Notes: generated by a model from the sequence alone, not told the origin. A stretch of DNA of 38,159 bases from an uncultured Rickettsiales bacterium (GCA_900549365.1 UROD01000002.1:1-38159); one strand, 5' to 3'; shown: positions 525 through 20,113, counted from the first letter of the stretch. A program made the numbers and translations.

Positions 525-1514
<990 letters not shown>

Positions 1515-1553
1515 TAAAAATAAAATAAAAACTAAAAAAGAAAGGAAAGAAAA

Positions 1554-2567
1554 ATGAAAAAATTAACAGCTGGCATTTTGACAGTTATGCTGGGAATCGT
1601 TGCGGCGAACTCTGCTGATGCTTCTATCGCATCCAAGGGTTACGTTGATGCCCAGGTTAAAACAAGCGTGTCAAATGCAACATTTGAAACATTCAAAACA
1701 GCAAACACAGCAGAAATCGCTGATGCCAAGAAAGCCGGCACAGATGCGGCCGCAGCATTAGCAACATACCAAGAATCTAATGATACCGCTGTTGCAGCAA
1801 AAGCAGATACTGCAACCGTAAACGCAGACTTGGCCAAGAAACAGAACAAATTGGTATCAACAGATAACGTTGTTATCAATGACGACAACACAATCACATT
1901 GAAAGGCATCGCCACAGATACAGGTTTGGCGGATTTGCAAAAAACAGTTGGTGAACATACCACAACATTGGGCACGTTGACTGGCGACGGTGATGGTTCT
2001 ATTGCAAAATCTATTGCTAATGCAATTTCTGGCGAAGTAACCCGTGCAGATGCTGCATATGCAACCGCCGCACAGGGTGCAAAGGCCGATACAGCAGTTC
2101 AGCCAGCGGCGATTGCCGATATGGAAACAAAAGCAAATGCAGCTGCGACATATGCGACCAAGGCCGCATTGGATGCTAAGGCAGACAAATCAACAATCGG
2201 TGAAGTTGAAACTGGTAAAACAGTTGTCCAAATGATCGCTGATGCCAAGAGTGCTGTATCTGGTGATACAACTGCATTGCAGACACGTGTCAAGACAATC
2301 GAAGACAGCGATGTTATGGCATCTGGCGCAACCAAGGCAAAGATTGACGCAATCGCAACCAACACCACAGGCGTTGCTGACAACAAAGCAGCAGTAGCAG
2401 CGGTTACCAAAGATTTGGCAGATAACTATACCAAGACAGCAGATTTGGGCACATTGGCCAAGGCAGCCCCTGGCGAATGCGCAGAACCAACCAAGAAATG
2501 TGCGTTGGTATTTGATGGTACCAAATATACTTGGGAAGTTATCGAACGTGATGCTGAAAACCAGTAA
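1554..2567 (+). CDS. secreted Ala/Thr-rich surface protein (paralog 3)
   Basis: 337-aa ORF with SD aaagga. Signal peptide (..VAANSADA/SI) followed by IASKGYVD. Shares the ADAKKAGTDAAxAL.TY..SND.AV module with 2658..4109. C-terminal Cys pair plus the YTWEVI motif. Confidence 0.8.
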   Translation: MKKLTAGILTVMLGIVAANSADASIASKGYVDAQVKTSVSNATFETFKTANTAEIADAKKAGTDAAAALATYQESNDTAVAAKADTATVNADLAKKQNKLVSTDNVVINDDNTITLKGIATDTGLADLQKTVGEHTTTLGTLTGDGDGSIAKSIANAISGEVTRADAAYATAAQGAKADTAVQPAAIADMETKANAAATYATKAALDAKADKSTIGEVETGKTVVQMIADAKSAVSGDTTALQTRVKTIEDSDVMASGATKAKIDAIATNTTGVADNKAAVAAVTKDLADNYTKTADLGTLAKAAPGECAEPTKKCALVFDGTKYTWEVIERDAENQ

Positions 2568-2580
2568 TCAGAAAAATAAT

Positions 2581-2611
2581 TGTGTCGTGCCCACACAATG
2601 GGCATGACACA
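2581..2611 (+). terminator. intergenic hairpin, possible terminator
   Basis: 12-bp stem tgtgtcgtgccc/gggcatgacaca (one G-U pair) with a 7-nt loop. No clear T-run follows. Confidence 0.35.
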
Positions 2612-2657
2612 TAGTCAGGGTTTTAACAGGTTATAAAAACGAAGGTTTTGGGAAAAA

Positions 2658-4109
2658 ATGAAAAGATTAACAAGTATTTTAGCGATTTCTGTGATTGCGG
2701 TTATGTCCGCAGGTGCGGCGCGTGCTGATATCGCATCAACAACATATGTTGATAACAAAGTATCGCCAGTTTCCGCCAAGGCAGATACCAATGCCGGTGA
2801 AATTGCAACATTAAAATCAGGCAAGCAAGATAAATCAGCGATGGTTGATTCAACCAGCGAGAACTTGGCTGAAACAAACGATACCAACTATCCAACTGTT
2901 GCAGCGGTATACACCATTGCAGCCAATGCATTGGGTACCCAAGTTAACAATAAGTTAGACAAGAAGTTTACAGGCGATGCCAACAAGAGCAAAGCAGTAA
3001 TAACAGATGCTAATGGTGCAATCACCACAGGTACAATTTCGTCCGCAATGATTACAGATGGTACAATCGTAAATGCTGATATCGCAGATAATGCGGCCAT
3101 CGCACAGTCCAAAATCGCAGGTTTGGCGGGTTCTATTGCCGATGCCAAGAAAGCTGGTACAGATGCGGCGTCTGCGTTGAACACTTATAAAACATCTAAT
3201 GATGCTGCGGTGAAAGCAGTGAAGACGACGGCTGATAATACAGCGGCTGCGGTGAACAATGCGACAACAGGTTTGGCAGCAACCAAAAAGATTGCGGATG
3301 ACAATGCTGCGAAGTTGAAAACTATGGCGACCAGCGAAACCGTAACCGCATTGACAACACGTGTTGGAACTGCTGAAACTAACATCACGAGTTTGCAGAA
3401 TGGAAAACAGGATAAATTGGTTTCCAGTGGCGCAAATGCGAACATCAGTGGTTCAAATGGTGTAACCGTTACAGTCGGCACTGATGGCAAGGTTGCTGTT
3501 TCTGGTAATCAGAGCGCAATTGACACAGCAATTGGTGGTAAATTGGGTAAAAACGAAAATGCTGTATCTGCAACCAAAGCAACCCAAGATGGCAGTGGTA
3601 ACATAATTACAGCAACATATGCCACCAAGACAGAGTTGGGAACCAAGCAAGATAAATTGGGTTACACAGCTGAAAATGCAGCGAACAAGGTAACAGCGAT
3701 TTCGTCAACATCAACAGATACCCAGTATCCAAGTGCCAAGGCCGTTTACACTGAATTGGCGAAAAAACAGAACAATATCACGATTGATTCTGAATTGAGT
3801 TCAACCAGCACAAACCCAGTACAGAACAAGGTGGTAAATAATGCACTGGCGGGTAAACAGGCAACATTGACCCCTACACAGTTGAACGCGGCAAATTCTG
3901 GGATTACAGAGGCCAAGGTAACCACGTATGATGGGTATGGTGCGAAAATTACGACCGCTCAGAACACTGCTAATACTGCAAAAACAACGGCAGAAGCGGC
4001 AATTGCAGCACCTGCGGCCGCCACAATCAGTACCGATGGCGTGTATACACTGACAATGAAAGTTGTTAATGGTACAAAAACGTATGCTTGGGAACAGATT
4101 GGTCGTTAA
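2658..4109 (+). CDS. secreted Ala/Thr-rich surface protein (paralog 4, largest)
   Basis: 483-aa ORF. Signal peptide (..SAGAARA/DI) followed by IASTTYVD. Contains modules found in every other paralog, plus YPTVAAVYTIA and QYPSAKAVYTEL motifs reminiscent of phage tail-fibre repeats. Confidence 0.8.
   Translation: MKRLTSILAISVIAVMSAGAARADIASTTYVDNKVSPVSAKADTNAGEIATLKSGKQDKSAMVDSTSENLAETNDTNYPTVAAVYTIAANALGTQVNNKLDKKFTGDANKSKAVITDANGAITTGTISSAMITDGTIVNADIADNAAIAQSKIAGLAGSIADAKKAGTDAASALNTYKTSNDAAVKAVKTTADNTAAAVNNATTGLAATKKIADDNAAKLKTMATSETVTALTTRVGTAETNITSLQNGKQDKLVSSGANANISGSNGVTVTVGTDGKVAVSGNQSAIDTAIGGKLGKNENAVSATKATQDGSGNIITATYATKTELGTKQDKLGYTAENAANKVTAISSTSTDTQYPSAKAVYTELAKKQNNITIDSELSSTSTNPVQNKVVNNALAGKQATLTPTQLNAANSGITEAKVTTYDGYGAKITTAQNTANTAKTTAEAAIAAPAAATISTDGVYTLTMKVVNGTKTYAWEQIGR
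2820..3062 (+). repeat. 243-nt cassette, copy A (near-identical to 4624..4866)
   Basis: Encodes GKQDKSAMVDSTSENLAETNDTNYPTVAAVYTIAANALGTQVNNKLDKKFTGDANKSKAVITDANGAITTGTISSAMITDG. Hand alignment to copy B gives about 7 mismatches. Confidence 0.9.
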
Positions 4110-4123
4110 TGCATGATAAAAAA

Positions 4124-4159
4124 CATGGTATGGCGTGAACGCTTTTGCGTCATACCATG
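4124..4159 (+). terminator. intergenic hairpin, possible terminator
   Basis: 9-bp stem catggtatg/cataccatg with additional inner pairing, 15 nt after the stop of 2658..4109. No strong T-run follows. Confidence 0.4.
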
Positions 4160-4236
4160 TACAAAAGGCACTTGCCATAAAACAGGATTTTTTGGTATTA
4201 TATTACTGAGAGATTGAATATACAGAATGTAGAGTC

Positions 4237-5286
4237 ATGAAATATATTAAAAGTATCTTTGCTGTTTCGATTGTTGCCATGGCTGTGGTGGGAAATGCGC
4301 GTGCAAGTATCGTATCGCAAACAAACATCGTTGGCGGTTCAAATGTATCTGTAAATGTGCCAAAATCTGGTACTAACGCGGGCAAGGTTGTTATTTCTGC
4401 AACTGATACGAATACGACGTATACAACAGGTACAACGACATATTCTGGTACAACAAAATTGTACACGGGGACGGGCAGTGCGACCGATGGTACGCTGACC
4501 CAAAAAGCAATTAAAGATGCGTTGGATGGCAAGTTGTCCACATCTGGTACGGCGGCCAAAGCAACGGCTGATGCCAGCGGTAACACAATCACATCAACAT
4601 ATGCCACCAAGACAGAGTTGGGAGGCAAGCAAGATAAATCAGCGATGGTTGATTCAACCAGCGAGAACTTGTCTGAATCAAACGATACCAACTATCCCAC
4701 AGTTGCAGCGGTATACACCATTGCAGCCAATGCATTGGGCACCCAAGTTAACAATAAGTTAGACAAGAAGTTTACAGGCGATGCCAACAAGAGCAAAGCA
4801 GTAATAACAGATGCTAATGGTGCAATCACCACAGGTACGATTTCGTCCGCAATGATTACAGATGGTGCGGTAACATCCGCCAAGATTGCCGACGGTACGA
4901 TTGCAACGGCTGACTTGTCGGGCGGTTCTGTTACGACAGCAAAAATTGCTGACTTGAACGTGACCGAGGGGAAAATTGCGGCAAACGCAGTTACCACTGC
5001 AAAAATCAAGGACGCGAATGTTACCACGGCCAAGGTAGCGGATGGTGCAATCACATCTGCCAAGATTGCTAATGGTACGATTGCGGAAGCGGATTTGTCT
5101 GACGCGGTTAAAACGAAACTGAATGCAACTGTTCAGACATTTAACCCTGCGTCGGCAACAGCGGGCCAGTATGTGACTCACTTTACCAAAAAAGGCACAA
5201 CCGTTACAGCAGAAACAGCATATGTCCAGATTCCTGTTGGTTCGGCAACCGCGCCGACCAGCGTGGCATCAATCTGGGTTGAATAA
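4237..5286 (+). CDS. secreted surface protein (paralog 5) with about eight 11-residue xxVT(T/S)AKIA repeats
   Basis: 349-aa ORF with signal peptide (..VVGNARA/SI). The central part is a mosaic of two segments of 2658..4109. The C-terminal half carries DGAVTSAKIADGTIATADL-type repeats. Confidence 0.8.
   Translation: MKYIKSIFAVSIVAMAVVGNARASIVSQTNIVGGSNVSVNVPKSGTNAGKVVISATDTNTTYTTGTTTYSGTTKLYTGTGSATDGTLTQKAIKDALDGKLSTSGTAAKATADASGNTITSTYATKTELGGKQDKSAMVDSTSENLSESNDTNYPTVAAVYTIAANALGTQVNNKLDKKFTGDANKSKAVITDANGAITTGTISSAMITDGAVTSAKIADGTIATADLSGGSVTTAKIADLNVTEGKIAANAVTTAKIKDANVTTAKVADGAITSAKIANGTIAEADLSDAVKTKLNATVQTFNPASATAGQYVTHFTKKGTTVTAETAYVQIPVGSATAPTSVASIWVE
4624..4866 (+). repeat. 243-nt cassette, copy B
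   Basis: Same 81-codon segment as 2820..3062. It is preceded by a 27-nt exact match (4597..4623) to 3615..3641 of the neighbouring gene. Confidence 0.9.
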
Positions 5287-6624: not shown

Positions 6625-6628
6625 AATA

Positions 6629-6655
6629 TTGCCCGCCGTTTGGTGGGCAGTTTTT
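6629..6655 (+). terminator. rho-independent terminator after rbfA
   Basis: Stem ttgcccgcc/ggtgggcag with loop gttt, followed by ttttt. Confidence 0.8.
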
Positions 6656-6749: not shown

Positions 6750-8552
6750 ATGCATCAAAAAAATATCAGAAATTTTGCAATTGTTGCACATATTGATCAT
6801 GGTAAATCGACGCTGTCTGATCGGCTAATTGAGTACACAGGCGGTCTGCAATCGCGCGAAATGAAAGCCCAAGTTTTGGATTCTATGGATATAGAACGCG
6901 AACGTGGCATTACAATCAAGGCCCAGACAGTGCGTCTGAACTATCATGCGCGTGATGGGCAAACGTATCAGTTAAATTTGATGGACACGCCGGGGCACGT
7001 GGACTTTTCTTATGAGGTGTCGCGCAGTTTGGCTGCGTGCGAGGGGGCATTGATTCTGGTCGATGCAACCCAAGGAGTTCAGGCCCAGACGTTGGCAAAT
7101 GCTTATTTGGCGTTGGACAACGATTTGGAAATGTTGCCGGTGCTGAATAAAATTGATTTGCCGTCCAGCGATGTAGAAGGTACGCGTCAGCAAATAGCAG
7201 ATGCAATCGGGCTGGACGCGACAAATGCCGTATGCGTTTCTGGGAAAACAGGTGCGGGCGTGCCCGAACTGTTGGAAGAAATCGTTCATAAATTGCCCGC
7301 CCCACACGGTAATGAAGATGCCCCAACGCGCGCGTTGTTGGTGGATTCGTGGTATGATTCTTATCTGGGGGTGGTGGTTTTAGTACGCGTGGTTGATGGA
7401 AAATTATCACGTGGGCAAAAGATAAAGTTTTTGGCAACTGGTGCGGAATATACGGTTGAAAAAATCGGATATTTTACACCCAAGATGGTTGATGTTGATA
7501 CCCTGAATACTGGTGAAATTGGTTTTATTATCACGGGTATGAAAACAATTCATGATTGCAAGGTTGGTGATACAATTGCCGATGCCAAGGTGGCGGCCGC
7601 CACTGGGGCAGAGGCATTGCCAGGGTTCAAACCGTCTGTGCCTGTGGTGTTTTCGTCATTCTTTCCCGTGGCCGCGGACGATTATCCGACATTGCGTGAA
7701 AGCGCGGAAAAGTTGGCGTTAAATGACGCGTCGTTTATGTTCACAACCGAAAAATCATCTGCGCTGGGGTTTGGGTTGCGCTGTGGATTTTTGGGATTAT
7801 TGCATATGGAAATTATCAGCGAACGCCTGTCGCGCGAATTTAATTTGTCGTTGATAAATACTGTGCCCAGCGTGTTATACAAGGTCTATATGCGTGACGG
7901 CAGCGAAATGGATTTGGAAAATCCAGCAGATATGCCTGATGTGACGAAAATTCAATCTATTGAAGAACCATGGGTTCGTGCCACAATTATGATGCCAGAT
8001 AAATACATGGGCGGAATTATGTCGCTGTGTGCGGAACGCCGTGGCGTCCAAGAAAACGTATCTTATGTTGGTAATCGTGCGGTATTGGTGTATCAATTAC
8101 CGTTGGCAGAAATCGTGTTTGATTTTTATGACAGGGTAAAATCTATATCTTCGGGGTATGCATCATTTGATTATGTCGTTAATGGTTATCAACCATCTGA
8201 TTTGGTCAAGGTGTCAATTCTGGTTAACGATGAAAATGTTGAACCGTTATCTTTTATGTGCCATCGCATGTTCGCAGAACGTCGCGGTCGCCAAATTGTG
8301 GAAAAACTGAAAGACCTGATACCACGTCATCAGTTCAAAATTCCATTGCAGGCGGCCATTGGTGGCAAAATTATTGCGCGTGAAACAATTGCGGCGTATC
8401 GTAAAGATGTGACTGCAAAATGTTACGGCGGGGATATAACCCGTAAACGCAAACTGTTGGAGAAGCAGAAGGAGGGGAAAAAACGTATGCGCACATTTGG
8501 GAATGTTGAAATTCCACAAAGCGCATTCATAAACGCACTGAAAGTGTCGTAA
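6750..8552 (+). CDS. lepA: elongation factor 4 (LepA)
   Basis: [31 protein letters not shown] and NKIDLP GTPase motifs, plus the LepA-type C-terminus (..[22 protein letters not shown]). ATG 6750 is preferred over the GTG at 6735. Confidence 0.95.
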
Positions 8553-8567
8553 CAAAAGGAGCCCACG

Positions 8568-8957
8568 ATGCTGATTGACAGAATATGGTACTATATAAAA
8601 ACAGATACCCAGACGCGCGCCACGGATCGGCTGCGTTATCAAGAACTGAAAATGCAAGAGCAGGTGTTGGCCAAGGAAGCATGTGATGCATATGCCGAAA
8701 TGAGAAAAGGGGCGTGTGTTGTCGTGACGTTTCATGAAGGCGAAAATTGGGCCGATGATTATCCCTGCTTTGCATATTACAATACGCATATTTGCCCGCA
8801 TTTCAGCGAAAACAAGATATGTAATGTGACCGGTTGTAATTCATATCCCGCAAAGCACAAGTATGACATTGCGTACGCGAAGTGGTATGAGGCACATCGC
8901 TGTATTAAAAACTTCTGGCGTGATGCACACATTGCACATAATACAAACGGCAAATAA
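8568..8957 (+). CDS. small Cys-motif protein, array member 1
   Basis: 129 aa. SD aaggag; starts 16 nt after the lepA stop. N-terminus MLIDRIWYYIKTDTQTRATD..Y. C-x8-C-x4-C motif (CPHFSENKICNVTGC) followed by NFW. Confidence 0.75.
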   Translation: MLIDRIWYYIKTDTQTRATDRLRYQELKMQEQVLAKEACDAYAEMRKGACVVVTFHEGENWADDYPCFAYYNTHICPHFSENKICNVTGCNSYPAKHKYDIAYAKWYEAHRCIKNFWRDAHIAHNTNGK

Positions 8958-8973
8958 CCCAAGGGGGTATAAA

Positions 8974-9369
8974 ATGATACTAGCCAAAATAAAATATTTA
9001 TTGAAAACAGACAAGGCCACGCGCCGCGCCGATAAAAATGAATATAATATATTGAACGAAAAATACATTAAAACATTCAAAGATGAACAAGATGCCTTTG
9101 ATGATATGACCATTGTACGTGTGTGCGAAAAAAATAAGCCACAAATGTCTGATAATGCATGCCGTATATCTGTGATTGCTGCCAAGACCGGTCAAATCCG
9201 TGATGTTCGTGAATGCGTGTTCTTTAATCGTAATGGTTGTGGTCGTGTGTATTGTCCTTGTTATCCCCAGATGGAAAAATGGGTTCGCGCCCGTACAGAA
9301 CGCGCTGTATACACCAAAGCATTGAAATGCTTTTGGTTGGACAAGGTAAAAACACGTGGTGGTAAATAA
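8974..9369 (+). CDS. small Cys-motif protein, array member 2
   Basis: 131 aa from the internal ATG (MILAKIKYLLKTDKATRRAD) with SD aggggg. The longer track ORF from 8863 would overlap member 1. CVFFNRNGCGRVYCPC motif followed by CFW. Confidence 0.75.
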   Translation: MILAKIKYLLKTDKATRRADKNEYNILNEKYIKTFKDEQDAFDDMTIVRVCEKNKPQMSDNACRISVIAAKTGQIRDVRECVFFNRNGCGRVYCPCYPQMEKWVRARTERAVYTKALKCFWLDKVKTRGGK

Positions 9370-9386
9370 ATATTGGGGGGAATTAT

Positions 9387-9800
9387 ATGTTTACAGATGC
9401 TATAAAATATTTTTTCAAAACCAGTGCAATACAACGCCAGTTTGATAAAAAACGTTATGACGCACTGAAAAAATATTATGCGGAATTGGACAACGCGGTT
9501 TATGACACATGGCAAAATATTAGTGTCGATTTCCCTGAATTTGCAAATCTGCAAATGTTCGGGGGCTGGTGTATGAAAAACCGCCGCACAATGTCAGGAG
9601 ATTTGACACAATTTATCAATACTGTGGAATACAGTGTTCCATGTAAAGATTTTAATGAAAATGCATGTTGTGCTAATCGTGGGTGTCCAATGTATGCAAA
9701 AAATAAAGAGCATTTTAATGCTGTGCACAAACGCAATATTGTAAAAAAACAGTTGGACTCGTTCTGGGCTGATATATACCAGCACAGATTTCAGAAATAG
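9387..9800 (+). CDS. small Cys-motif protein, array member 3
   Basis: 137 aa with SD gggggg. N-terminus MFTDAIKYFFKTSAIQRQFD..Y. CKDFNENACCANRGCP motif followed by SFW. Confidence 0.75.
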   Translation: MFTDAIKYFFKTSAIQRQFDKKRYDALKKYYAELDNAVYDTWQNISVDFPEFANLQMFGGWCMKNRRTMSGDLTQFINTVEYSVPCKDFNENACCANRGCPMYAKNKEHFNAVHKRNIVKKQLDSFWADIYQHRFQK

Positions 9801-9809
9801 GAGAAAATT

Positions 9810-10586
9810 ATGTTGATTGACAAGATAAAATATTTTTTCAAAACCGACAAAACAACACGTGCATATGATTTTGCACAATATCGCCAAATCAAGCGCGCCT
9901 GTGCAGAAAAACAGCGAGATGTTACAAATGCAATGTGTGAAGTTATGCATACAGAAAATTGCTTTTGGATTGAACCAGACGAATCGGATAGAAATATCGG
10001 GTTCTTGGTACCGCAACAGTGTTATACTAAATTCTGCCCACAGTTTAATGACACAAAACCATGCGTATGTACTGCGTGTCATGCGTATAAACTGAATAAA
10101 AAATTTTTTGATGTACGTGATGAATACGTAGCGTTATCTGATTCCAAATATTCTTTTTGGAAAAACGCCAGTCGTCGTACCCCAGAACAACGCGCTGCGC
10201 GCGCTGACGAGGCCCAGCGTGTATATGTAAAGCGTGAACGCGAATTGTCTGAAAAATGTGCCATTGCCGCCGAAAAACAGCGTGCGGCGCAGGATGCGAT
10301 TTGTACCCCATTGTTTGTACAATCAGACACCCCACGGCGTGAAAGAGAAAACTGCTTGCAAGATGTACATTATGACTCGATGTCTTATTGCGCAGATTAC
10401 GACCATGGTTTAGACATCAATGTTGTAGAATCATGTAAACATTTCAACCCAGACAGTGTTTGCAGCCAAGAAAAATGCCCGTATCATATCAATAACAAAA
10501 ATATGATTCAAGCAACCAAAGAATTCAAAGACGCCCAGCGTGAATACCGTAATTTCACGGGTAAAGTATGGGAAAAATCAAAATGA
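9810..10586 (+). CDS. small Cys-motif protein, array member 4 (fusion of two repeat units)
   Basis: 258 aa. Unit a runs from MLIDKIKYFFKT to CPQFNDTKPCVCTAC and SFW. Unit b runs from TPEQRAARADEAQRVY to CKHFNPDSVCSQEKCPYH and KVW. Confidence 0.75.
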   Translation: MLIDKIKYFFKTDKTTRAYDFAQYRQIKRACAEKQRDVTNAMCEVMHTENCFWIEPDESDRNIGFLVPQQCYTKFCPQFNDTKPCVCTACHAYKLNKKFFDVRDEYVALSDSKYSFWKNASRRTPEQRAARADEAQRVYVKRERELSEKCAIAAEKQRAAQDAICTPLFVQSDTPRRERENCLQDVHYDSMSYCADYDHGLDINVVESCKHFNPDSVCSQEKCPYHINNKNMIQATKEFKDAQREYRNFTGKVWEKSK

Positions 10587-11011
10587 TAGATAAAATTCTG
10601 TATTATCTTAAAACCACACCTGAAAAACGTGCCGCAGACAGGGCGGAATATGATGCGTTGATACGAAAATATGAAAAACAATTGGGCAAGGTTGCGGCAA
10701 CAGAGGCGGCGTTGCACAGTCCTGTTTTGTCAGATGCCGAATTTCGCAATTCGGAAAAATTCTGCATTATGCACAGAACGGTGCGCGTAAATGATTATTT
10801 GAACGATTCGTTAAATGGTCATTTGCCAATGATGGCACAGGAACAAAGGTGTTCTTTGTATCGCCCGTACAAGGGGAATGGGGCGTGTTGGCGCGGCCTG
10901 TGTCCGTGTAATGCGAAAAATCTGGCGTATTTTGCCGCACGCAAGTATCAACAGAAACTGGAACATATGTTAGATATGTTCTGGGCCAAGAAATATGCGC
11001 GCGCCAGATAA
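10583..11011 (+). CDS. small Cys-motif protein, array member 5
   Basis: 142 aa from ATG 10583 (MIDKILYYLKTTPEKRAADRAEY), overlapping the member 4 stop as ATGA. C-x11-C-x4-C-P-C motif followed by MFWAKKY. Confidence 0.75.
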   Translation: MIDKILYYLKTTPEKRAADRAEYDALIRKYEKQLGKVAATEAALHSPVLSDAEFRNSEKFCIMHRTVRVNDYLNDSLNGHLPMMAQEQRCSLYRPYKGNGACWRGLCPCNAKNLAYFAARKYQQKLEHMLDMFWAKKYARAR

Positions 11012-11028
11012 TATCGGGATAATAAATT

Positions 11029-11391
11029 ATGTTGTTAAAAAAAGTAAAATATTATTTGAAAACATCGGAAACGCAGCGCGCGCTTGATGCCCAAGATGGC
11101 GCAGATTTGGCACGCGAATATGTTGCCATAAAAACAAAGCGTGATGCGGCGTTTCAAAAAATATCGTGGGTATTATCATGTGATGATATGAACGTTGGTT
11201 TGAACTGCGTAAAGCAGGGGGTGTTCAGGGAATATTATTGTCCGGACTTTTCACCAGATGTGCCATGTAATAATCCTGCGTGTAGATTGCGTGATGCCAA
11301 TAATCAATATGTTAAATGCAATCAAGAATTTCAGATTGCACGCGCAAAGTTAGATGAGTTTTGGGCTGAAAAATACAACAAGGTAAAATAA
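11029..11391 (+). CDS. small Cys-motif protein, array member 6
   Basis: 120 aa. N-terminus MLLKKVKYYLKTSETQRALD. CPDFSPDVPCNNPAC motif followed by EFWAEKY. Confidence 0.75.
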   Translation: MLLKKVKYYLKTSETQRALDAQDGADLAREYVAIKTKRDAAFQKISWVLSCDDMNVGLNCVKQGVFREYYCPDFSPDVPCNNPACRLRDANNQYVKCNQEFQIARAKLDEFWAEKYNKVK

Positions 11392-11392
11392 T

Positions 11393-11782
11393 ATGTTCGC
11401 GAAAATAAAATATTTATTGAATACCACACCCGCACAACGTGCGGCAGACAAGGCAGAATATGATGCGCTGAATTATCAGTGCGATAAATTGTATCATGCG
11501 CGTGAATTGGCGTACGATGCAATTTGCAAGTGTGCGCAACCTGATGCAGATTTGTGGAATGTTTTGGCATGTGTAAAACAGCAGCGGGTGGATTTCTATG
11601 AACGCGCGTCGTTTTGGCATCAAGAAGAGTGCGAACATTTTTCATTTTTACGCCCATGCAAAAACGGAAAGTGCCCCAAGGTTTTGGCAAATCATTTATA
11701 TATATCACGTAATAATGACTATGAACGTGCATTGAATAAATTGAATGATTTTTGGTCAGAAAAATACAAACGGGTAAAATAA
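11393..11782 (+). CDS. small Cys-motif protein, array member 7
   Basis: 129 aa; 1-nt gap after member 6. N-terminus MFAKIKYLLNTTPAQRAADKAEY. CEHFSFLRPCKNGKCP motif followed by DFWSEKY. Confidence 0.75.
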   Translation: MFAKIKYLLNTTPAQRAADKAEYDALNYQCDKLYHARELAYDAICKCAQPDADLWNVLACVKQQRVDFYERASFWHQEECEHFSFLRPCKNGKCPKVLANHLYISRNNDYERALNKLNDFWSEKYKRVK

Positions 11783-11783
11783 T

Positions 11784-12206
11784 ATGTTTGAAAAGATAAA
11801 ATATTACATCAACACAACATCAGCCCAGCGTGCATTATATTCGGCGGAATATAATGAATTGGCACATCGTGCGTCCAAGGCGAAATGTGACATGGATTAT
11901 GCGTATGATGCGCTGGTCAGGGACGTGCCAGTTGATAAATCATTTTATTCTGTGTGCGGGTGTATGAAGGTTATGGAAATTCCGCCGGTCACGTTTGCTG
12001 ATGTTTTAAATGCGCTGACATGCCCCAACGGCCCTGTAATTTTACGTAATGAATGTTGGTATTACAATCCGTCGCGGTCATGTAATCAGCGCGCGTGTCC
12101 ATATCACGACAGAAATCAAAATTATTTTGTAAAACGCGAAATTTACCGTGCGGCGTGCGCGGTTCGGAACAGATACTGGCCAAATCTGTACGCGAAAATC
12201 AAATAA
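11784..12206 (+). CDS. small Cys-motif protein, array member 8
   Basis: 140 aa; 1-nt gap after member 7. N-terminus MFEKIKYYINTTSAQRALYSAEY. CWYYNPSRSCNQRACPYH motif followed by RYWPNLY. Confidence 0.75.
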   Translation: MFEKIKYYINTTSAQRALYSAEYNELAHRASKAKCDMDYAYDALVRDVPVDKSFYSVCGCMKVMEIPPVTFADVLNALTCPNGPVILRNECWYYNPSRSCNQRACPYHDRNQNYFVKREIYRAACAVRNRYWPNLYAKIK

Positions 12207-12244: not shown

Positions 12245-13243
12245 ATGGCACATCAGTTCTTTTTTAATCCGTTTATTTTGGATAATTTGCCTGCGCCCAG
12301 TACTGGGTTTGATGTTGTTCAGGATTTATCCGAACCGCGTTTGCGTATGTATATTACCAGTCGCGGGGTAAAAACATTTTTTGTGCGTCATCGCAGCCAC
12401 GGTCGTGACAAGCGTATAATTATTGGCAATTACCCAAATATGGATATCGAAGATGCGCGCGCCGCGGTGGCAGATGCACTGGTGCGTGCGGATGCACCAA
12501 AAAATAACAAGCGTCGGAAAATCAAATTCAAAAAATTTATTGATATATATATGGCGGCGCGCGTGCGTCGTGGGGCGGCATCGCGTGAAAAATTGGTGCG
12601 TTCTATCAATCGGCACTTGTCAGGATTGTTTGATAAAAATATTGCCGATATAACGCGTGATGATTGCGTTGCGGTAATTGATGGTATCAGTGGCGCGGCA
12701 ATTCGTGGTCGCATGCAGGAATTATTACAGAGTATGTTTTCATACGCTTGTGATGAAGGATATGTGCCCATCAATCCCATTGACGATTTGCCCAAGGTTG
12801 TTCAAACGCGTCGTGTGCGTCCATTAAATCGTACCAGTTTTTATCGCTTGGTGCGGGCGATTAAATCGGTTAAATCGCCAAATATGCGTGCGGCATTTTT
12901 TATGTTGGTGTATGGGTTCGCGCCGAAATCGCACATCTTTGCAATGCAATGGCGGGACTTGGATTTCAATCATTACACATGGTGCGACAGACCTTTGTCT
13001 GATGCGGCGGTTGTGTTATTACAGAATTTGCCCCAAAACGGTCGTTGGGTTTTTGCGGGACGTGGGCGTGGGCATTTAACAGACCCGCGACGCGCGTGGC
13101 GTGCGGTTGCAAATGCCGCGGGCGTGCCAAATTTAACGATGGACGATGTGCATAAATTTTTGATGCGTCAACTGGTTTGGGCGTCTGACCGCGAAGATTT
13201 ACGTACTAATATGAATAACCTGTTGACGGAATTGATGGCATAA
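12245..13243 (+). CDS. P4-type phage-integrase-like protein (tyrosine-recombinase fold) with apparently degenerate catalytic residues
   Basis: 332 aa from ATG 12245 (SD aggggg). The N-terminus (LRMYITSRGVKTFFVRHRSHGRDKRIIIGNYPNMDIEDARAAV) resembles the arm-binding domain of P4-like integrases. The C-terminal domain is short and has no Tyr after the ..DDVHKF.. His. Confidence 0.7.
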   Translation: MAHQFFFNPFILDNLPAPSTGFDVVQDLSEPRLRMYITSRGVKTFFVRHRSHGRDKRIIIGNYPNMDIEDARAAVADALVRADAPKNNKRRKIKFKKFIDIYMAARVRRGAASREKLVRSINRHLSGLFDKNIADITRDDCVAVIDGISGAAIRGRMQELLQSMFSYACDEGYVPINPIDDLPKVVQTRRVRPLNRTSFYRLVRAIKSVKSPNMRAAFFMLVYGFAPKSHIFAMQWRDLDFNHYTWCDRPLSDAAVVLLQNLPQNGRWVFAGRGRGHLTDPRRAWRAVANAAGVPNLTMDDVHKFLMRQLVWASDREDLRTNMNNLLTELMA

Positions 13244-13247
13244 GCAC

Positions 13248-13263
13248 ACAAAAGTACTTTTGT
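13248..13263. promoter_or_regulatory. perfect 16-bp palindrome ACAAAAGTACTTTTGT
   Basis: Read directly from the sequence. It lies 5 nt after the integrase-like stop and about 30 nt upstream of the candidate acpP -35 element. Confidence 0.5.
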
Positions 13264-13293
13264 CAAGGTGTTGTTACCGTTTGTTATAATTTC

Positions 13294-13322
13294 TTGACAC
13301 TGGTGCTGTAAAATGATAGTTT
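13294..13322 (+). promoter_or_regulatory. candidate acpP promoter (TTGACA-17-TAGTTT)
   Basis: Consensus -35 hexamer. The -10 is weak but keeps T1, A2 and T6. It lies about 55 nt upstream of the acpP ATG. Confidence 0.4.
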
Positions 13323-13377
13323 TACATAATGACGTCCCAAAGTGGACAGCAAATTTAACCGAAACAAAGGATAAAAA

Positions 13378-14981: not shown

Positions 14982-14984
14982 AAA

Positions 14985-15008
14985 ATGGGGCATTCGCCCC
15001 GTTTTTTA
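14985..15008 (+). terminator. rho-independent terminator after fabF
   Basis: Stem ggggc/gcccc with loop attc, followed by gtttttt. Confidence 0.8.
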
Positions 15009-15039
15009 TTAGAGCATAGATAATAGATTCGTGCAAAAC

Positions 15040-15071
15040 AAAAAACACCACAAAAGTGGTGCTTTTTATTT
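15040..15071. terminator. bidirectional terminator hairpin abutting the duplicated tRNA-Pro 3' fragment
   Basis: Stem caccac/gtggtg with loop aaaa, flanked by an A-run on the left and a T-run on the right. Confidence 0.65.
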
Positions 15072-15090
15072 TGGTCGGAGTGACTGGGTT
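15072..15090 (-). repeat. 19-nt exact duplicate of the tRNA-Pro 3' end (T-loop through CCA), att-like
   Basis: tggtcggagtgactgggtt is identical to 15276..15294. The sequences diverge immediately afterwards (gtaatt versus cgaacc). Confidence 0.9.
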
Positions 15091-15235
15091 GTAATTCCCA
15101 CCGCAATGCGGCGGGCCATTTCGTTTGACCTACGGTCTACACGTAACCTGCGGTTTCACTGCGCGGCAATGTGTTGCCGCTTGTTCCGAACCAAACATTA
15201 TTTCATAATGTGTGGTCGAACTGCGCAATTCCGCC

Positions 15236-15275
15236 CACAAAAAATACCATGCTGTTTTTGCATGGTATATTTTTC
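15236..15275 (-). terminator. terminator hairpin directly downstream of tRNA-Pro
   Basis: 9-bp stem ataccatgc/gcatggtat. A T-run follows on the - strand and a T-rich stretch on the + strand. Confidence 0.7.
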
Positions 15276-15352
<77 letters not shown>

Positions 15353-15364
15353 AAAACAACTGCA

Positions 15365-15392
15365 TTTTTACAAGACGGTGCAGATTATGCAA
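15365..15392 (-). promoter_or_regulatory. candidate promoter for tRNA-Pro (TTGCAT-16-TAAAAA on the - strand)
   Basis: Hexamers read on the reverse complement. The -10 element ends about 12 nt upstream of the mature tRNA 5' end. Confidence 0.35.
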
Positions 15393-15492
15393 CGAACAGG
15401 TGGAAAAAGCAATATCTTTTATTTCTCTTTTATACTTGTAAATATCAAAATTTTTGCCATATTTTATCAGGTATCAAAGAAAGGAAAAAACT

Positions 15493-18461: not shown

Positions 18462-19247
18462 ATGAAAAAATTAGCTTTAACTTCCTTGATGGCTGTATTT
18501 GCAGTTTCTGCTGCGAACGCTGCGGTGATTAACGATAATCCGCTGTATCGTCCAATGCAGGGTCAGGCGTACAGTATTACTGGGTTGGAATCTCATTCCA
18601 AATCAACCAGTAATTGGGACGCGACCGAAGAATTGGCTTACGGTGTTACAGATAAATTAGCAGTTGGTATGGAATTATCTGCATCCGAAAGCAACTGGTT
18701 CGATAAATCCGGCATTGATACATTTGGTATCGGCGCAAACTATCGCGTATTTGAACAGAGTGGTTGGGCTGTCGATGTTATGGGTTCTTATGGTCTGTAT
18801 GGCGTTCTGCCATATGGCGGTTCATTCTTGGACAAAGACGTAACAACTTACCAGTGGACAATTGGTGCACAGGTTGGCAAAGAATTTGGTAACCTGACAT
18901 TGGCTGGTCACGTTGCGATGGACTATGTCAACAGCGAATCCTTTAACTGGAATGACGATGGCATTCATCAGGTTCGTTTGGGCTTGGATGGATTCTTGGC
19001 ATTGGACAGCAACTGGGCATTGGTTGGTGGTGTTGAATACGCCGGTATTGCCGATGACAAACTGCCAAATGGTGCAAAGGTTGAAAATGCTGGCACATGG
19101 ACAGGCACAGTTGGTGTGAACTATAACTTCTGTGACAACACATTTGTTGGCGCGTATGTTGGACGTGAAATGTCCCACACTGGCGCAGGCGAATGGTCAA
19201 CAGATGCTGGTTTCGCATTTGGTGCTAAATTCGGTGCACAGTTCTAA
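18462..19247 (+). CDS. predicted outer-membrane beta-barrel protein
   Basis: 261 aa with SD aaaggga. Signal peptide (..AVSAANA/AV), alternating hydrophobic beta-strand pattern rich in Gly and aromatic residues, and a C-terminal ..FGAQF with terminal Phe typical of OMPs. Confidence 0.65.
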   Translation: MKKLALTSLMAVFAVSAANAAVINDNPLYRPMQGQAYSITGLESHSKSTSNWDATEELAYGVTDKLAVGMELSASESNWFDKSGIDTFGIGANYRVFEQSGWAVDVMGSYGLYGVLPYGGSFLDKDVTTYQWTIGAQVGKEFGNLTLAGHVAMDYVNSESFNWNDDGIHQVRLGLDGFLALDSNWALVGGVEYAGIADDKLPNGAKVENAGTWTGTVGVNYNFCDNTFVGAYVGREMSHTGAGEWSTDAGFAFGAKFGAQF

Positions 19248-19270
19248 TATTTAATTGGAACAAATATGGG

Positions 19271-19299
19271 CCCGCGCAGATTGCGCGGGTCTTTTGTTT
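19271..19299 (+). terminator. rho-independent terminator
   Basis: Stem cccgcgc/gcgcggg with loop agatt, followed by tcttttgttt. Confidence 0.8.
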
Positions 19300-19351
19300 G
19301 AATTTCGTCCTGTTGTGTGCGTGATGGCATCGGCGGTACAATTGCACCAAG

Positions 19352-20113
19352 ATGGCCAGATTGCGGAATTTTTTTGGAATTATATTGATAATCGGAATAT
19401 GCGCGGCGTCGCGCGCCGATGTCGGCGACGTCAGTCGTATTGTAAAGTCCGGTGAATTTTCAGCGCATTTTGGGACGGCCTTTGTCACAGGTCGGACGCG
19501 CGATGGGCATTCGCAAACAGATTTTTCCGCCGGTCGCATACATGAAACCAGTTTGACATTGGATTACAGTCCTAATGACTTTTTTACTGTGCAATTCAGT
19601 ACAGATAACGATTATTCCGATATGCAAATCGGGGCATTATATAAAATATGGACAACGCCCCCACTGAAATTCGAGGCCGGCGTGGCATACGGTCCCGCAT
19701 GGACAAAACGGGCGACCGATGGCGTCCGATATGGTCGCAACAATGTAATATTAGATATGCGTTTGCATGGCGTGCGCTGGTCGCGCACACAATGGTCGGT
19801 CAAGGTATCGCCACAATTTGTAATGGATGATGACGGAAATTTCTGGAATATAAAAATTTCGCCACAAATTATGTACTATTTTGTTCAAAATCTGGCTGCT
19901 ATCTTGGGCTTTGATTATGATTTTTTGCAAATTTCGCGTCCCAAAACAATATATAATCGTTCGGTCAGTGCCGAAGCAGTGTATAATATGTCGGACGCCG
20001 CATCGGTAAATCCATATGTAAAATACCATTTTGAAACCAAAGATGCCGACAATGAATTGATTGACTGTGATGACTATTGGAAATTTGGTGTCAGTTTTTC
20101 AGTTAAATTCTAA
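19352..20113 (+). CDS. predicted outer-membrane beta-barrel protein
   Basis: 253 aa with a signal peptide (..IGICAASRA/DV), beta-strand periodicity and a C-terminal ..GVSFSVKF with terminal Phe. Confidence 0.6.
   Translation: MARLRNFFGIILIIGICAASRADVGDVSRIVKSGEFSAHFGTAFVTGRTRDGHSQTDFSAGRIHETSLTLDYSPNDFFTVQFSTDNDYSDMQIGALYKIWTTPPLKFEAGVAYGPAWTKRATDGVRYGRNNVILDMRLHGVRWSRTQWSVKVSPQFVMDDDGNFWNIKISPQIMYYFVQNLAAILGFDYDFLQISRPKTIYNRSVSAEAVYNMSDAASVNPYVKYHFETKDADNELIDCDDYWKFGVSFSVKF

Follow-up and report, generated by a model that had tools for sequence, protein, structure and literature searches.

The window analysed here is the whole 38,159-nucleotide (nt) stretch GCA_900549365.1 UROD01000002.1:1-38159, filed under an uncultured Rickettsiales bacterium; the host is Candidatus Enterousia, a gut alphaproteobacterium of the order Rs-D84 of the Genome Taxonomy Database (GTDB) with a genome of about 0.9 Mb. 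Positions 8568-12206 carry, on the + strand, a tandem array of eight genes, M1 to M8, which amount to nine units of one protein family and fill the slot between lepA and an integrase-like gene that we call pInt. The original prediction had placed eight + strand open reading frames (ORFs) of 120-258 amino acids (aa) here, starting at 8568, 8974, 9387, 9810, 10583, 11029, 11393 and 11784, and all were confirmed. The genes of the slot and its two anchors are given below, with handles beginning in L for loci of other genomes and in P for family proteins; dN/dS is the ratio of non-synonymous to synonymous substitution rates.

6750-8552, + strand: lepA (EF4, elongation factor 4), the upstream anchor of the slot, with GTP_EFTU, EFG_C and LepA_C domains in its orthologues.
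8568-8957, + strand: M1, 129 aa, with orthologues of 96% (L001), 74% (L005) and 71% (L041) identity and a dN/dS of 0.12-0.17.
8974-9369, + strand: M2, 131 aa, with cysteines spaced C-x7-C-x4-C and no histidine.
9387-9800, + strand: M3, 137 aa, with orthologues P0001/P0002, missing from the close relative L001.
9810-10586, + strand: M4, 258 aa, a fusion of two units, a (about 9810-10175) and b (about 10176-10586).
10583-11011, + strand: M5, 142 aa, with cysteines spaced C-x11-C-x4-C and an ATGA overlap with M4, missing from L005.
11029-11391, + strand: M6, 120 aa, without histidine, missing from L001.
11393-11782, + strand: M7, 129 aa, the unit used for structure modelling.
11784-12206, + strand: M8, 140 aa, the last unit, 38 nt from pInt.
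12245-13243, + strand: pInt, 332 aa, integrase-like, the downstream anchor of the slot.

The array is tightly packed. M1 starts 15 nt after the lepA stop, one less than had been predicted, the spacers from M1 to M8 are in order 16, 17, 9, -4 (the ATGA overlap), 17, 1 and 1 nt, exactly the range of -4 to 17 nt with one overlap and two 1-nt gaps that had been announced, and the 38 nt between M8 and the integrase-like gene were also correct. A G-rich ribosome-binding site lies 6-12 nt 5′ of all eight starts. No transmembrane helix or hydrophobic stretch resembling a signal peptide occurs in the eight members (the maximum Kyte-Doolittle mean over 19 residues is 1.23), as anticipated. Aligned with MAFFT, as eight proteins or as nine units after M4 had been split, the members share an N-terminal motif, a variable centre, and a C-terminal cysteine module followed by FW. 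The predicted motifs were thus recovered, with C-x8-C-x4-C as the common spacing (x7 in M2 and x11 in M5), except in unit b of M4, which lacks the N-terminal K-I-K-Y helix and motif and has F-T-G-K-x-W in place of FW. That M4 counts as two units was borne out by a hidden Markov model (HMM) of the family, which detects two separate domains in it, at 9816 and 10239; the same two-unit type is found in P0011, P0027, P0029, P0045 and P0053.

The family was not recognised in the original prediction, and the searches brought no characterised relative. For the eight members, nothing below E=0.008 was obtained with the Pfam-A, NCBIfam, PHROGs and PADLOC HMMs; among 140 diverse members, no Pfam family picked up more than a single sequence; and a profile search of the sequences in the Protein Data Bank (PDB) returned coiled-coil noise only. 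A profile made from the nine units and run against 1.84 billion cluster-representative proteins did retrieve 290 representatives at E<=1e-3, of which 70 at E<=1e-10 (each standing for a cluster at 50% identity in public data), a number far beyond chance and without any characterised family; a word-indexed protein search, by contrast, recovered 6-10 members. Nearly all family proteins are 107-157 aa long, apart from a few two-unit proteins of about 220-300 aa, and they are basic, with a median isoelectric point (pI) of 9.1. The shared motifs persist in the alignment of the 140 diverse members. While the mean column identity there is 21%, four cysteines are invariant and Y7 and W121 (M7 numbering) nearly so; the fourth cysteine lies at least 19 residues upstream of the C-x8-C-x4-C triad, so that the family spacing reads C-x(19+)-C-x8-C-x4-C. 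With two family members and pInt as queries, no homologues were found in phage, plasmid, IMG/VR or viral contigs. From the sequences at hand, then, the family has been shown to be previously unannotated and, in the sampled loci, limited to Candidatus Enterousia and related Rs-D84 alphaproteobacteria, its members being cytoplasmic, basic proteins of about 130 aa per unit.

M7 was modelled by AlphaFold2 from the alignment of 140 sequences, with a predicted local distance difference test score (pLDDT) of 97.2 and a predicted template modelling score (pTM) of 0.84. The model has a short helix (residues 2-10), a long helix (13-44), strands at 45-48, 61-68 and 72-79, a cysteine loop or knuckle (80-96) and a long C-terminal helix (97-127). 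The beta-hairpin of residues 61-79 lies between C60 and C80, and a C-x4-C knuckle made by C89 and C94 immediately precedes the last helix. As the two long helices must run antiparallel, the fold would be a hairpin of helices whose tip bears a beta/knuckle head: a short N-terminal helix, an antiparallel two-helix stalk, and a predicted head of hairpin and knuckle held by the four invariant cysteines. We infer a single Cys4 site from the invariance of these cysteines and their placement at the ends of the hairpin and in the knuckle. It most likely holds one structural zinc ion, although iron or an iron-sulfur (Fe-S) cluster is possible. Histidine as the fourth ligand is ruled out because M2 and M6 have none and the four cysteines are invariant in the 140 members, and the ligand set is accordingly Cys4 and not Cys3 plus His. 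The small zinc-type fold that had been proposed is hence supported (pLDDT 97) as a small, putatively metal-binding fold, but the proposed triad with a nearby histidine gives way to four cysteines.

Conservation follows this predicted architecture, in agreement with the earlier description of conserved ends around a variable centre. One set of conserved residues (Y7, T11, D19, E22, Y23, L26, F120, W121 and K124) falls in the N-terminal helix, at the start of helix 1 and at the end of the last helix, that is, at the base of the stalk; a second set (C60, C80, F83, C89, C94, N100 and Y103) makes up the putative metal site. The stretches 45-59 and 62-79 come close to random, and at the tip of the hairpin insertions add up to 26 columns to the alignment. 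Taking as a structural match a Foldseek E-value of at most 1e-3 or a TM-score of at least 0.5, the predicted fold has none in the PDB, where the best E-value is 0.29 and TM-scores reach at most 0.45 (prefoldin and V-ATPase stalk subunits), nor in BFVD, where the best E-value is 0.17.

Two known groups of small Cys4 proteins come nearest. The Ogr/Delta proteins, zinc-finger late activators of P2/P4 elements, are likewise small Cys4 proteins with C-x4-C as the second pair and a link to P4-type elements, and P4 Delta naturally combines two units, as M4 does; they differ in having the spacing C-x2-C-x22-C-x4-C (Ogr) and no long helical hairpin, and their family PF04606 is matched by 0 of the 140 members. 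DksA/TraR proteins resemble the family in size (about 130-150 aa) and in combining a Cys4 metal site with a long antiparallel coiled coil. In DksA, however, the hairpin is continuous and the finger, C-x2-C-x17-C-x2-C, sits at its base, whereas in the model of M7 the metal head forms an insertion at the tip of the hairpin, and the family matches PF01258 neither in Pfam nor by Foldseek. Of the defining features of known families, the present one shares only two generic ones, the Cys4 site and the location upstream of an integrase. On this sequence evidence we rate both family and locus as new, bearing in mind that orphan families are common in uncultured lineages. We know of no system with this array architecture.

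The position of the family is fixed. About 100 loci were examined in all. Every locus that spans the region has the gene order rbfA, lepA, array, pInt, acpP, fabF, and lepA lies upstream of the family in every locus covering that side. In a scan of 20-kb loci, the family HMM found units in 87 of 93 sequences, always on the + strand and directly upstream of pInt, and none outside the lepA-pInt slot. Five divergent members (P0126, P0130, P0137, P0141 and P0143) all lie in the same slot, in one such lineage next to a LepA and a pInt that are 84% and 54% identical, respectively, to those of the window. In the distant lineage L094 the last family gene overlaps pInt by ATGA. The survey of the lepA-acpP junction that had been proposed gave, for the 76 species with a complete lepA-pInt interval, 0 units in 5 species, 1 in 32, 2 in 11, 3 in 13, 4 in 9, 5 in 2, 7 in 1 and 8 in 3; the nine units of the window make it the largest array found, and copy number spans 0-9. 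In the five family-free species, 21-34 nt separate lepA from the start of pInt. Four loci (L087, L072, L068 and L088) have long lepA-pInt intervals holding only low-scoring partial units, which look like decaying copies.

As to the hosts, a pInt probe run against one genome per species matched 241 genomes, and the best 80 of these 241 are labelled Candidatus Enterousia or uncultured Alphaproteobacteria/Rickettsiales from human, bird and ruminant guts. The Enterousia locus was also met under the labels ‘Bacteroides fragilis’ (L013, CAVGNU010000007.1) and ‘uncultured Muribaculaceae’ (L036, CAZJGX010000008.1); these contigs are probably mis-binned or mislabelled. Rs-D84/Enterousia genomes measure about 0.75-1.0 Mb and are without respiration and the greater part of biosynthesis; the host is a strict fermenter (PMC12306168).

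The history of the array is one of old paralogues and rapid turnover. Within the multi-copy genomes compared, that of the window included, no two paralogues share more than 36% identity, and each of the 121 multi-copy units (121 of 121) finds its best match in another genome, usually at the same array position. The array moreover recurs on independent contigs, and with these three observations a recent duplication or an assembly artefact is ruled out, in line with the old, diversified expansion that had been proposed. Nucleotide similarity among the members is low, as had been claimed, save for a stretch of 40 nt at each gene start, where the claim does not hold. Orthologues in close relatives show dN/dS values of 0.07-0.24, indicating purifying selection, weaker than in the flanking genes, where the values are 0.00-0.09. 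On these alignments the eight ORFs are shown to be real genes under selection. That they might be decaying duplicates or chance ORFs without function, to which the partial units in some genomes could lend some colour, can be dismissed in view of these dN/dS values, the four cysteines invariant in 140 members, the intact ORFs with ribosome-binding sites and the pLDDT of 97.

Membership changes already between close relatives: M3 and M6 are missing from L001, and M5 from L005, even though both have a LepA 97-98% identical to that of the window, and in species with LepA 93-94% identical the identity of units to window members nowhere exceeds 37%. For single-copy family genes compared between species, the median identity is 27%, as against about 65% for pInt and about 90% for LepA. 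Against L001, M1-M5 (8568-11011; 7965-9985 in L001) have a nucleotide identity of 96.5-97.9% and a synonymous divergence (dS) of 0.03-0.13, lepA, pInt and fabF have 88-91% and a dS of 0.47-0.68, and M7 and M8 have 78-80% and a dS of about 1.0, a pattern that reads as a clear recombination mosaic inside the array. This discrepancy between array and flanks in their identity to L001 means that array segments have been exchanged between lineages, and that divergent alleles persist. As judged from these comparisons, the array is shown to evolve by old duplication, fast divergence, loss of members and exchange of segments between lineages, and the low-scoring partial units of some genomes fit such a birth-and-death process.

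The gene downstream of the array is as constant as the array is changeable. pInt is present in all loci reaching that side, at 54-95% identity; across the genus it aligns without indels at 63-94% identity, and its dN/dS of 0.06-0.14 lies within or just above the range of rbfA, lepA, acpP and fabF (0.00-0.12). It matches Arm-DNA-bind_3 and phrog_1, and no match to PF00589 was found in pInt or in 120 listed homologues. In a profile alignment, its invariant Pro227 (G-F-A-P-K) falls on the catalytic Arg212 of lambda Int; the expected H-x-x-R box reads D-D-V-x, at a position judged by eye and not from the alignment; and beyond residue 223 no tyrosine is invariant, in alignments of 39 and of 36 orthologues. 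The isolated C-terminal domain found no integrase by sequence. Nevertheless the AlphaFold model (pLDDT 74) matches full-length lambda integrase (1z1b_A) by Foldseek with E=3.7e-8 over 332 columns, and other tyrosine recombinases as well. By alignment and model, pInt is a catalytically dead tyrosine recombinase of the lambda/P4 type that has kept the three-domain fold of lambda Int; with the catalytic Arg and Tyr missing, an active integrase is ruled out. Its indel-free conservation and low dN/dS suggest a domesticated, conserved and presumably DNA-binding protein, and since the arm-binding and core-binding domains are kept, it likely still binds DNA. The first 20 residues are invariant and yet modelled at a pLDDT below 50, a pattern as expected for a partner-binding peptide. 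TnsF of Tn6022-like elements offers a precedent, being an inactivated tyrosine recombinase kept as a DNA-site selector; like pInt, it derives from a tyrosine recombinase, has lost catalysis and has been kept apparently for DNA binding (PMC10293859). TnsF differs in being part of a mobile Tn7-like element, whereas pInt is fixed in the chromosome with no transposition genes nearby.

The transcription of the block is delimited by two features.

6628-6651, + strand: strong terminator-like hairpin after rbfA, with a 10-bp stem, 6 GC pairs and a T-run.
13244-13377, + strand: pInt-acpP intergenic region, strongly conserved in a 21-locus alignment, the downstream limit of the lepA-array-pInt block.

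No comparable + strand terminator was found from 6651 to about 15046, further ones following fabF, so that the predicted lack of a terminator between lepA and M1 was upheld. The intergenic region contains promoter-like boxes and a TTGTTA direct repeat; the order is TTGTCAA, the direct repeat TTGTTAnnnTTTGTTATAAT, TTGACAC, TAAAATGATAG and then a hairpin (GACGyCC...GGrC) that shows compensatory changes and precedes the acpP ribosome-binding site. These elements could be acpP promoters, a 5′ untranslated region element or pInt binding sites. The simplest reading is that lepA, the array and pInt form one transcription unit and that acpP is expressed from its own promoter.

Elsewhere in the window, four successive large + strand ORFs at 525-5286 (329, 337, 483 and 349 aa) have no Pfam match and lie in a stretch of extreme AT skew (0.24-0.29); the corresponding ORFs of relatives vary in length (290-435 aa). 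The neighbourhood of the fabF, AMP-binding-enzyme and YceG genes forms a second variable hotspot, at 14982-15453 in the window, 13632-15195 in L001 and 15483-17319 in L008. In the window it holds only tRNA-Pro(cgg), whereas the two relatives have different restriction-modification pairs there: in L001 MvaI/BcnI together with an N4/N6 methylase, in L008 EcoRI together with a D12 methylase. This tRNA gene (15276-15352, - strand) is the only one; it lies beyond acpP and fabF, and with pInt devoid of its catalytic residues this rules out a mobile island that has a tRNA gene as its border. Two further + strand ORFs of 261 and 253 aa without Pfam match, at 18462-20113 ahead of the S12/S7 ribosomal protein genes, keep their position in relatives (261 and 256 aa in L001).

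What could such an array be for? The explanation that we put first, though tentatively and at less than even probability, is that it is a birth-and-death repertoire of binding modules directed against fast-changing targets, i.e. a conflict or partner-interaction locus. The conserved stalk and its base would provide a shared scaffold or docking surface, while the hypervariable, indel-rich beta-hairpin, pinned by the metal, would give each paralogue its own binding specificity. The modules would bind, and thereby neutralise or sense, rapidly changing macromolecules of invaders, of competitors or of a partner cell. The founding gene was probably accessory cargo of an ancient integrative element, the integrase of which would have been domesticated as pInt. 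A conflict-type function is suggested by the copy number of 0-9, the gain and loss of members at the strain level, the fast divergence and the mosaic, and a conflict or partner function also by the presumed obligate dependence of Rs-D84 bacteria on a partner (PMC12306168). The arms race envisaged by the original prediction is consistent with these observations, with copy-number and presence/absence polymorphism and allele exchange discordant with the flanks being signs of a diversifying locus.

Several points weigh against this explanation. The proposed analysis of dN/dS across the variable middle showed no excess in the head (0.05-0.56, compared with the stalk by pairwise Nei-Gojobori estimates), contrary to what an arms race would lead one to expect. 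Summarised over the pairs, the ratio is 0.1-0.25, with 0.05-0.33 given for stalk and head alike. Positive selection was not detected, dN/dS being below 1 in the pairwise tests except for M2 against L001, where the sole value above 1 comes from the stalk (9 versus 1 changes) and where the whole gene differs by 11 non-synonymous and 2 synonymous changes. Next to the array there is neither a gene for a toxin, a nuclease, a restriction system or another defence function nor a mobile-element gene, and there was no PADLOC match. The strict linkage to pInt and the basic pI suit the role of a DNA-binding cofactor equally well, the fixed position says little on function because synteny is stable in reduced genomes, and the conserved residues of the stalk base may be purely structural.

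Arrays of small, diverse genes beside a tyrosine-recombinase gene are known from other bacteria. The recombinase-associated arrays of orphan immunity genes (rAID) of gut Bacteroidales, as well as integron cassette arrays, resemble the present locus in this arrangement, in the gut bacterium as host and in strain-variable content. They differ in that a single family is present here, toxin fragments are lacking, and the recombinase is dead and conserved in every locus. An integron cassette array is ruled out, since spacers of -4 to 17 nt fit no attC-like site and the repeats are coding only; pInt also excludes it, being co-oriented and inactive, whereas IntI is divergently oriented and active.

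The main rival follows from two features that the original prediction had missed, namely that pInt is dead yet present in every locus and that the family occurs only directly upstream of it. The family could descend from a recombination directionality factor (RDF) or accessory gene upstream of int, and its members could now be DNA-binding or architectural partners of the dead integrase, the paralogues directing or modulating pInt at different DNA sites; the function would be regulatory and not one of conflict. We regard this as unlikely, though still a serious contender. In lambda, xis lies directly upstream of int and overlaps it, and directionality factors are small, basic and diverse in sequence. 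RDFs and excisionases of the lambda Xis and P4 Vis/AlpA type thus share with the family their size, charge, diversity and place directly upstream of a lambda/P4-type integrase gene; they are co-transcribed with the integrase, which is predicted here as well. In every family-bearing locus the family genes are immediately upstream of and co-directional with pInt, with the ATGA overlap in L094, no terminator separates array and pInt, the proteins are small and basic (median pI 9.1), pInt retains its arm-binding and core-binding domains, and TnsF provides the precedent of an inactivated tyrosine recombinase as DNA-site selector (PMC10293859). However, five species keep pInt with its invariant N-terminus and have no family gene, which means that pInt can do without the family. 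Known directionality factors occur in a single copy and have a winged helix or helix-turn-helix (HTH), in contrast to the up to nine copies and the predicted helical hairpin with Cys4 head seen here, the integrase is dead and chromosomally fixed, and no Pfam excisionase family or other excisionase HMM was matched. Allele exchange and presence/absence polymorphism would also be unusual for a housekeeping regulator.

A bolder proposal, which we consider rather improbable, would join the Cys4 hairpin proteins and the dead integrase into a hitherto unknown two-part system, conserved throughout an order of gut symbionts with reduced genomes. The domesticated integrase would anchor the DNA, and the expandable set of hairpin paralogues would supply interchangeable specificity. 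The targets would be foreign DNA or proteins, which would amount to a new defence principle, or the system would programme gene expression in a partner-dependent life cycle.

Two further explanations each have only a slim chance. The first sees in the family metal- or redox-sensing transcription factors similar to WhiB, binding the transcription machinery with a Cys4 site that carries Fe-S or zinc. WhiB-type proteins are small, lineage-specific Cys4 proteins with many paralogues; the four invariant cysteines, the near-invariant Trp, the basic C-terminal tail and the several divergent paralogues per genome are compatible with such a role, as is the strictly fermentative host (PMC12306168). The spacing C-x(19+)-C-x8-C-x4-C is nevertheless different from the C-xn-C-x2-C-x5-C of WhiB, there is no Pfam match of any kind, and one would not expect a regulator to be lost in some species, to reach nine units elsewhere and to retain 27% identity between species. 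The second explanation holds that the proteins are effectors exported to a partner or host cell, with the termini as export or recognition signals and the variable head binding targets in the recipient. Expanded and fast-evolving families of reduced genomes are often interaction proteins, and these bacteria are predicted to live in dependence on a partner; conservation is highest at the extreme N-terminus and in the basic C-terminal tail, and fused second units lack the N-terminal motif. On the other hand, the members have no signal peptide or transmembrane segment, neither the window nor the loci showed a secretion system, and according to the model the conserved termini come together to form the stalk base, which would explain their conservation structurally.

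More doubtful still is a housekeeping helper of the prefoldin kind, a chaperone or ribosome-associated protein that would be co-expressed with EF4 and would co-assemble through its beta heads. Prefoldin and the V-ATPase and flagellar stalk subunits are built of an N-terminal helix, one or more beta-hairpins and a C-terminal helix that form an antiparallel coiled coil, a topology shared with the model. They include its top Foldseek neighbours, all weak, and the genes form an apparent operon with lepA. But these neighbours stay at E>=0.29, a Foldseek probability of at most 0.25 and TM-scores below 0.5, have no metal site and belong to other lineages, and the family itself is missing in five species, occurs in 1-9 copies elsewhere and diverges far faster than the neighbouring housekeeping genes.

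Enterousia and other Rs-D84 bacteria are uncultured and widespread inhabitants of the gut. That 3.6 kb of a genome of about 0.9 Mb are given over to nine units of an orphan family is a strong hint of a role towards other cells or invaders, and the family offers a very confidently predicted fold without relatives in the libraries searched, together with a natural copy series from 0 to 9. Its fixed link to a domesticated integrase, which is itself conserved across the sampled genomes of about 0.9 Mb, was unexpected. Should the array and pInt act independently, the locus would still be a well-defined and testable case of fast turnover in a lineage whose functions are little known; if they do cooperate, they would represent a new case of parts of a mobile element being recruited into the core biology of a symbiont.

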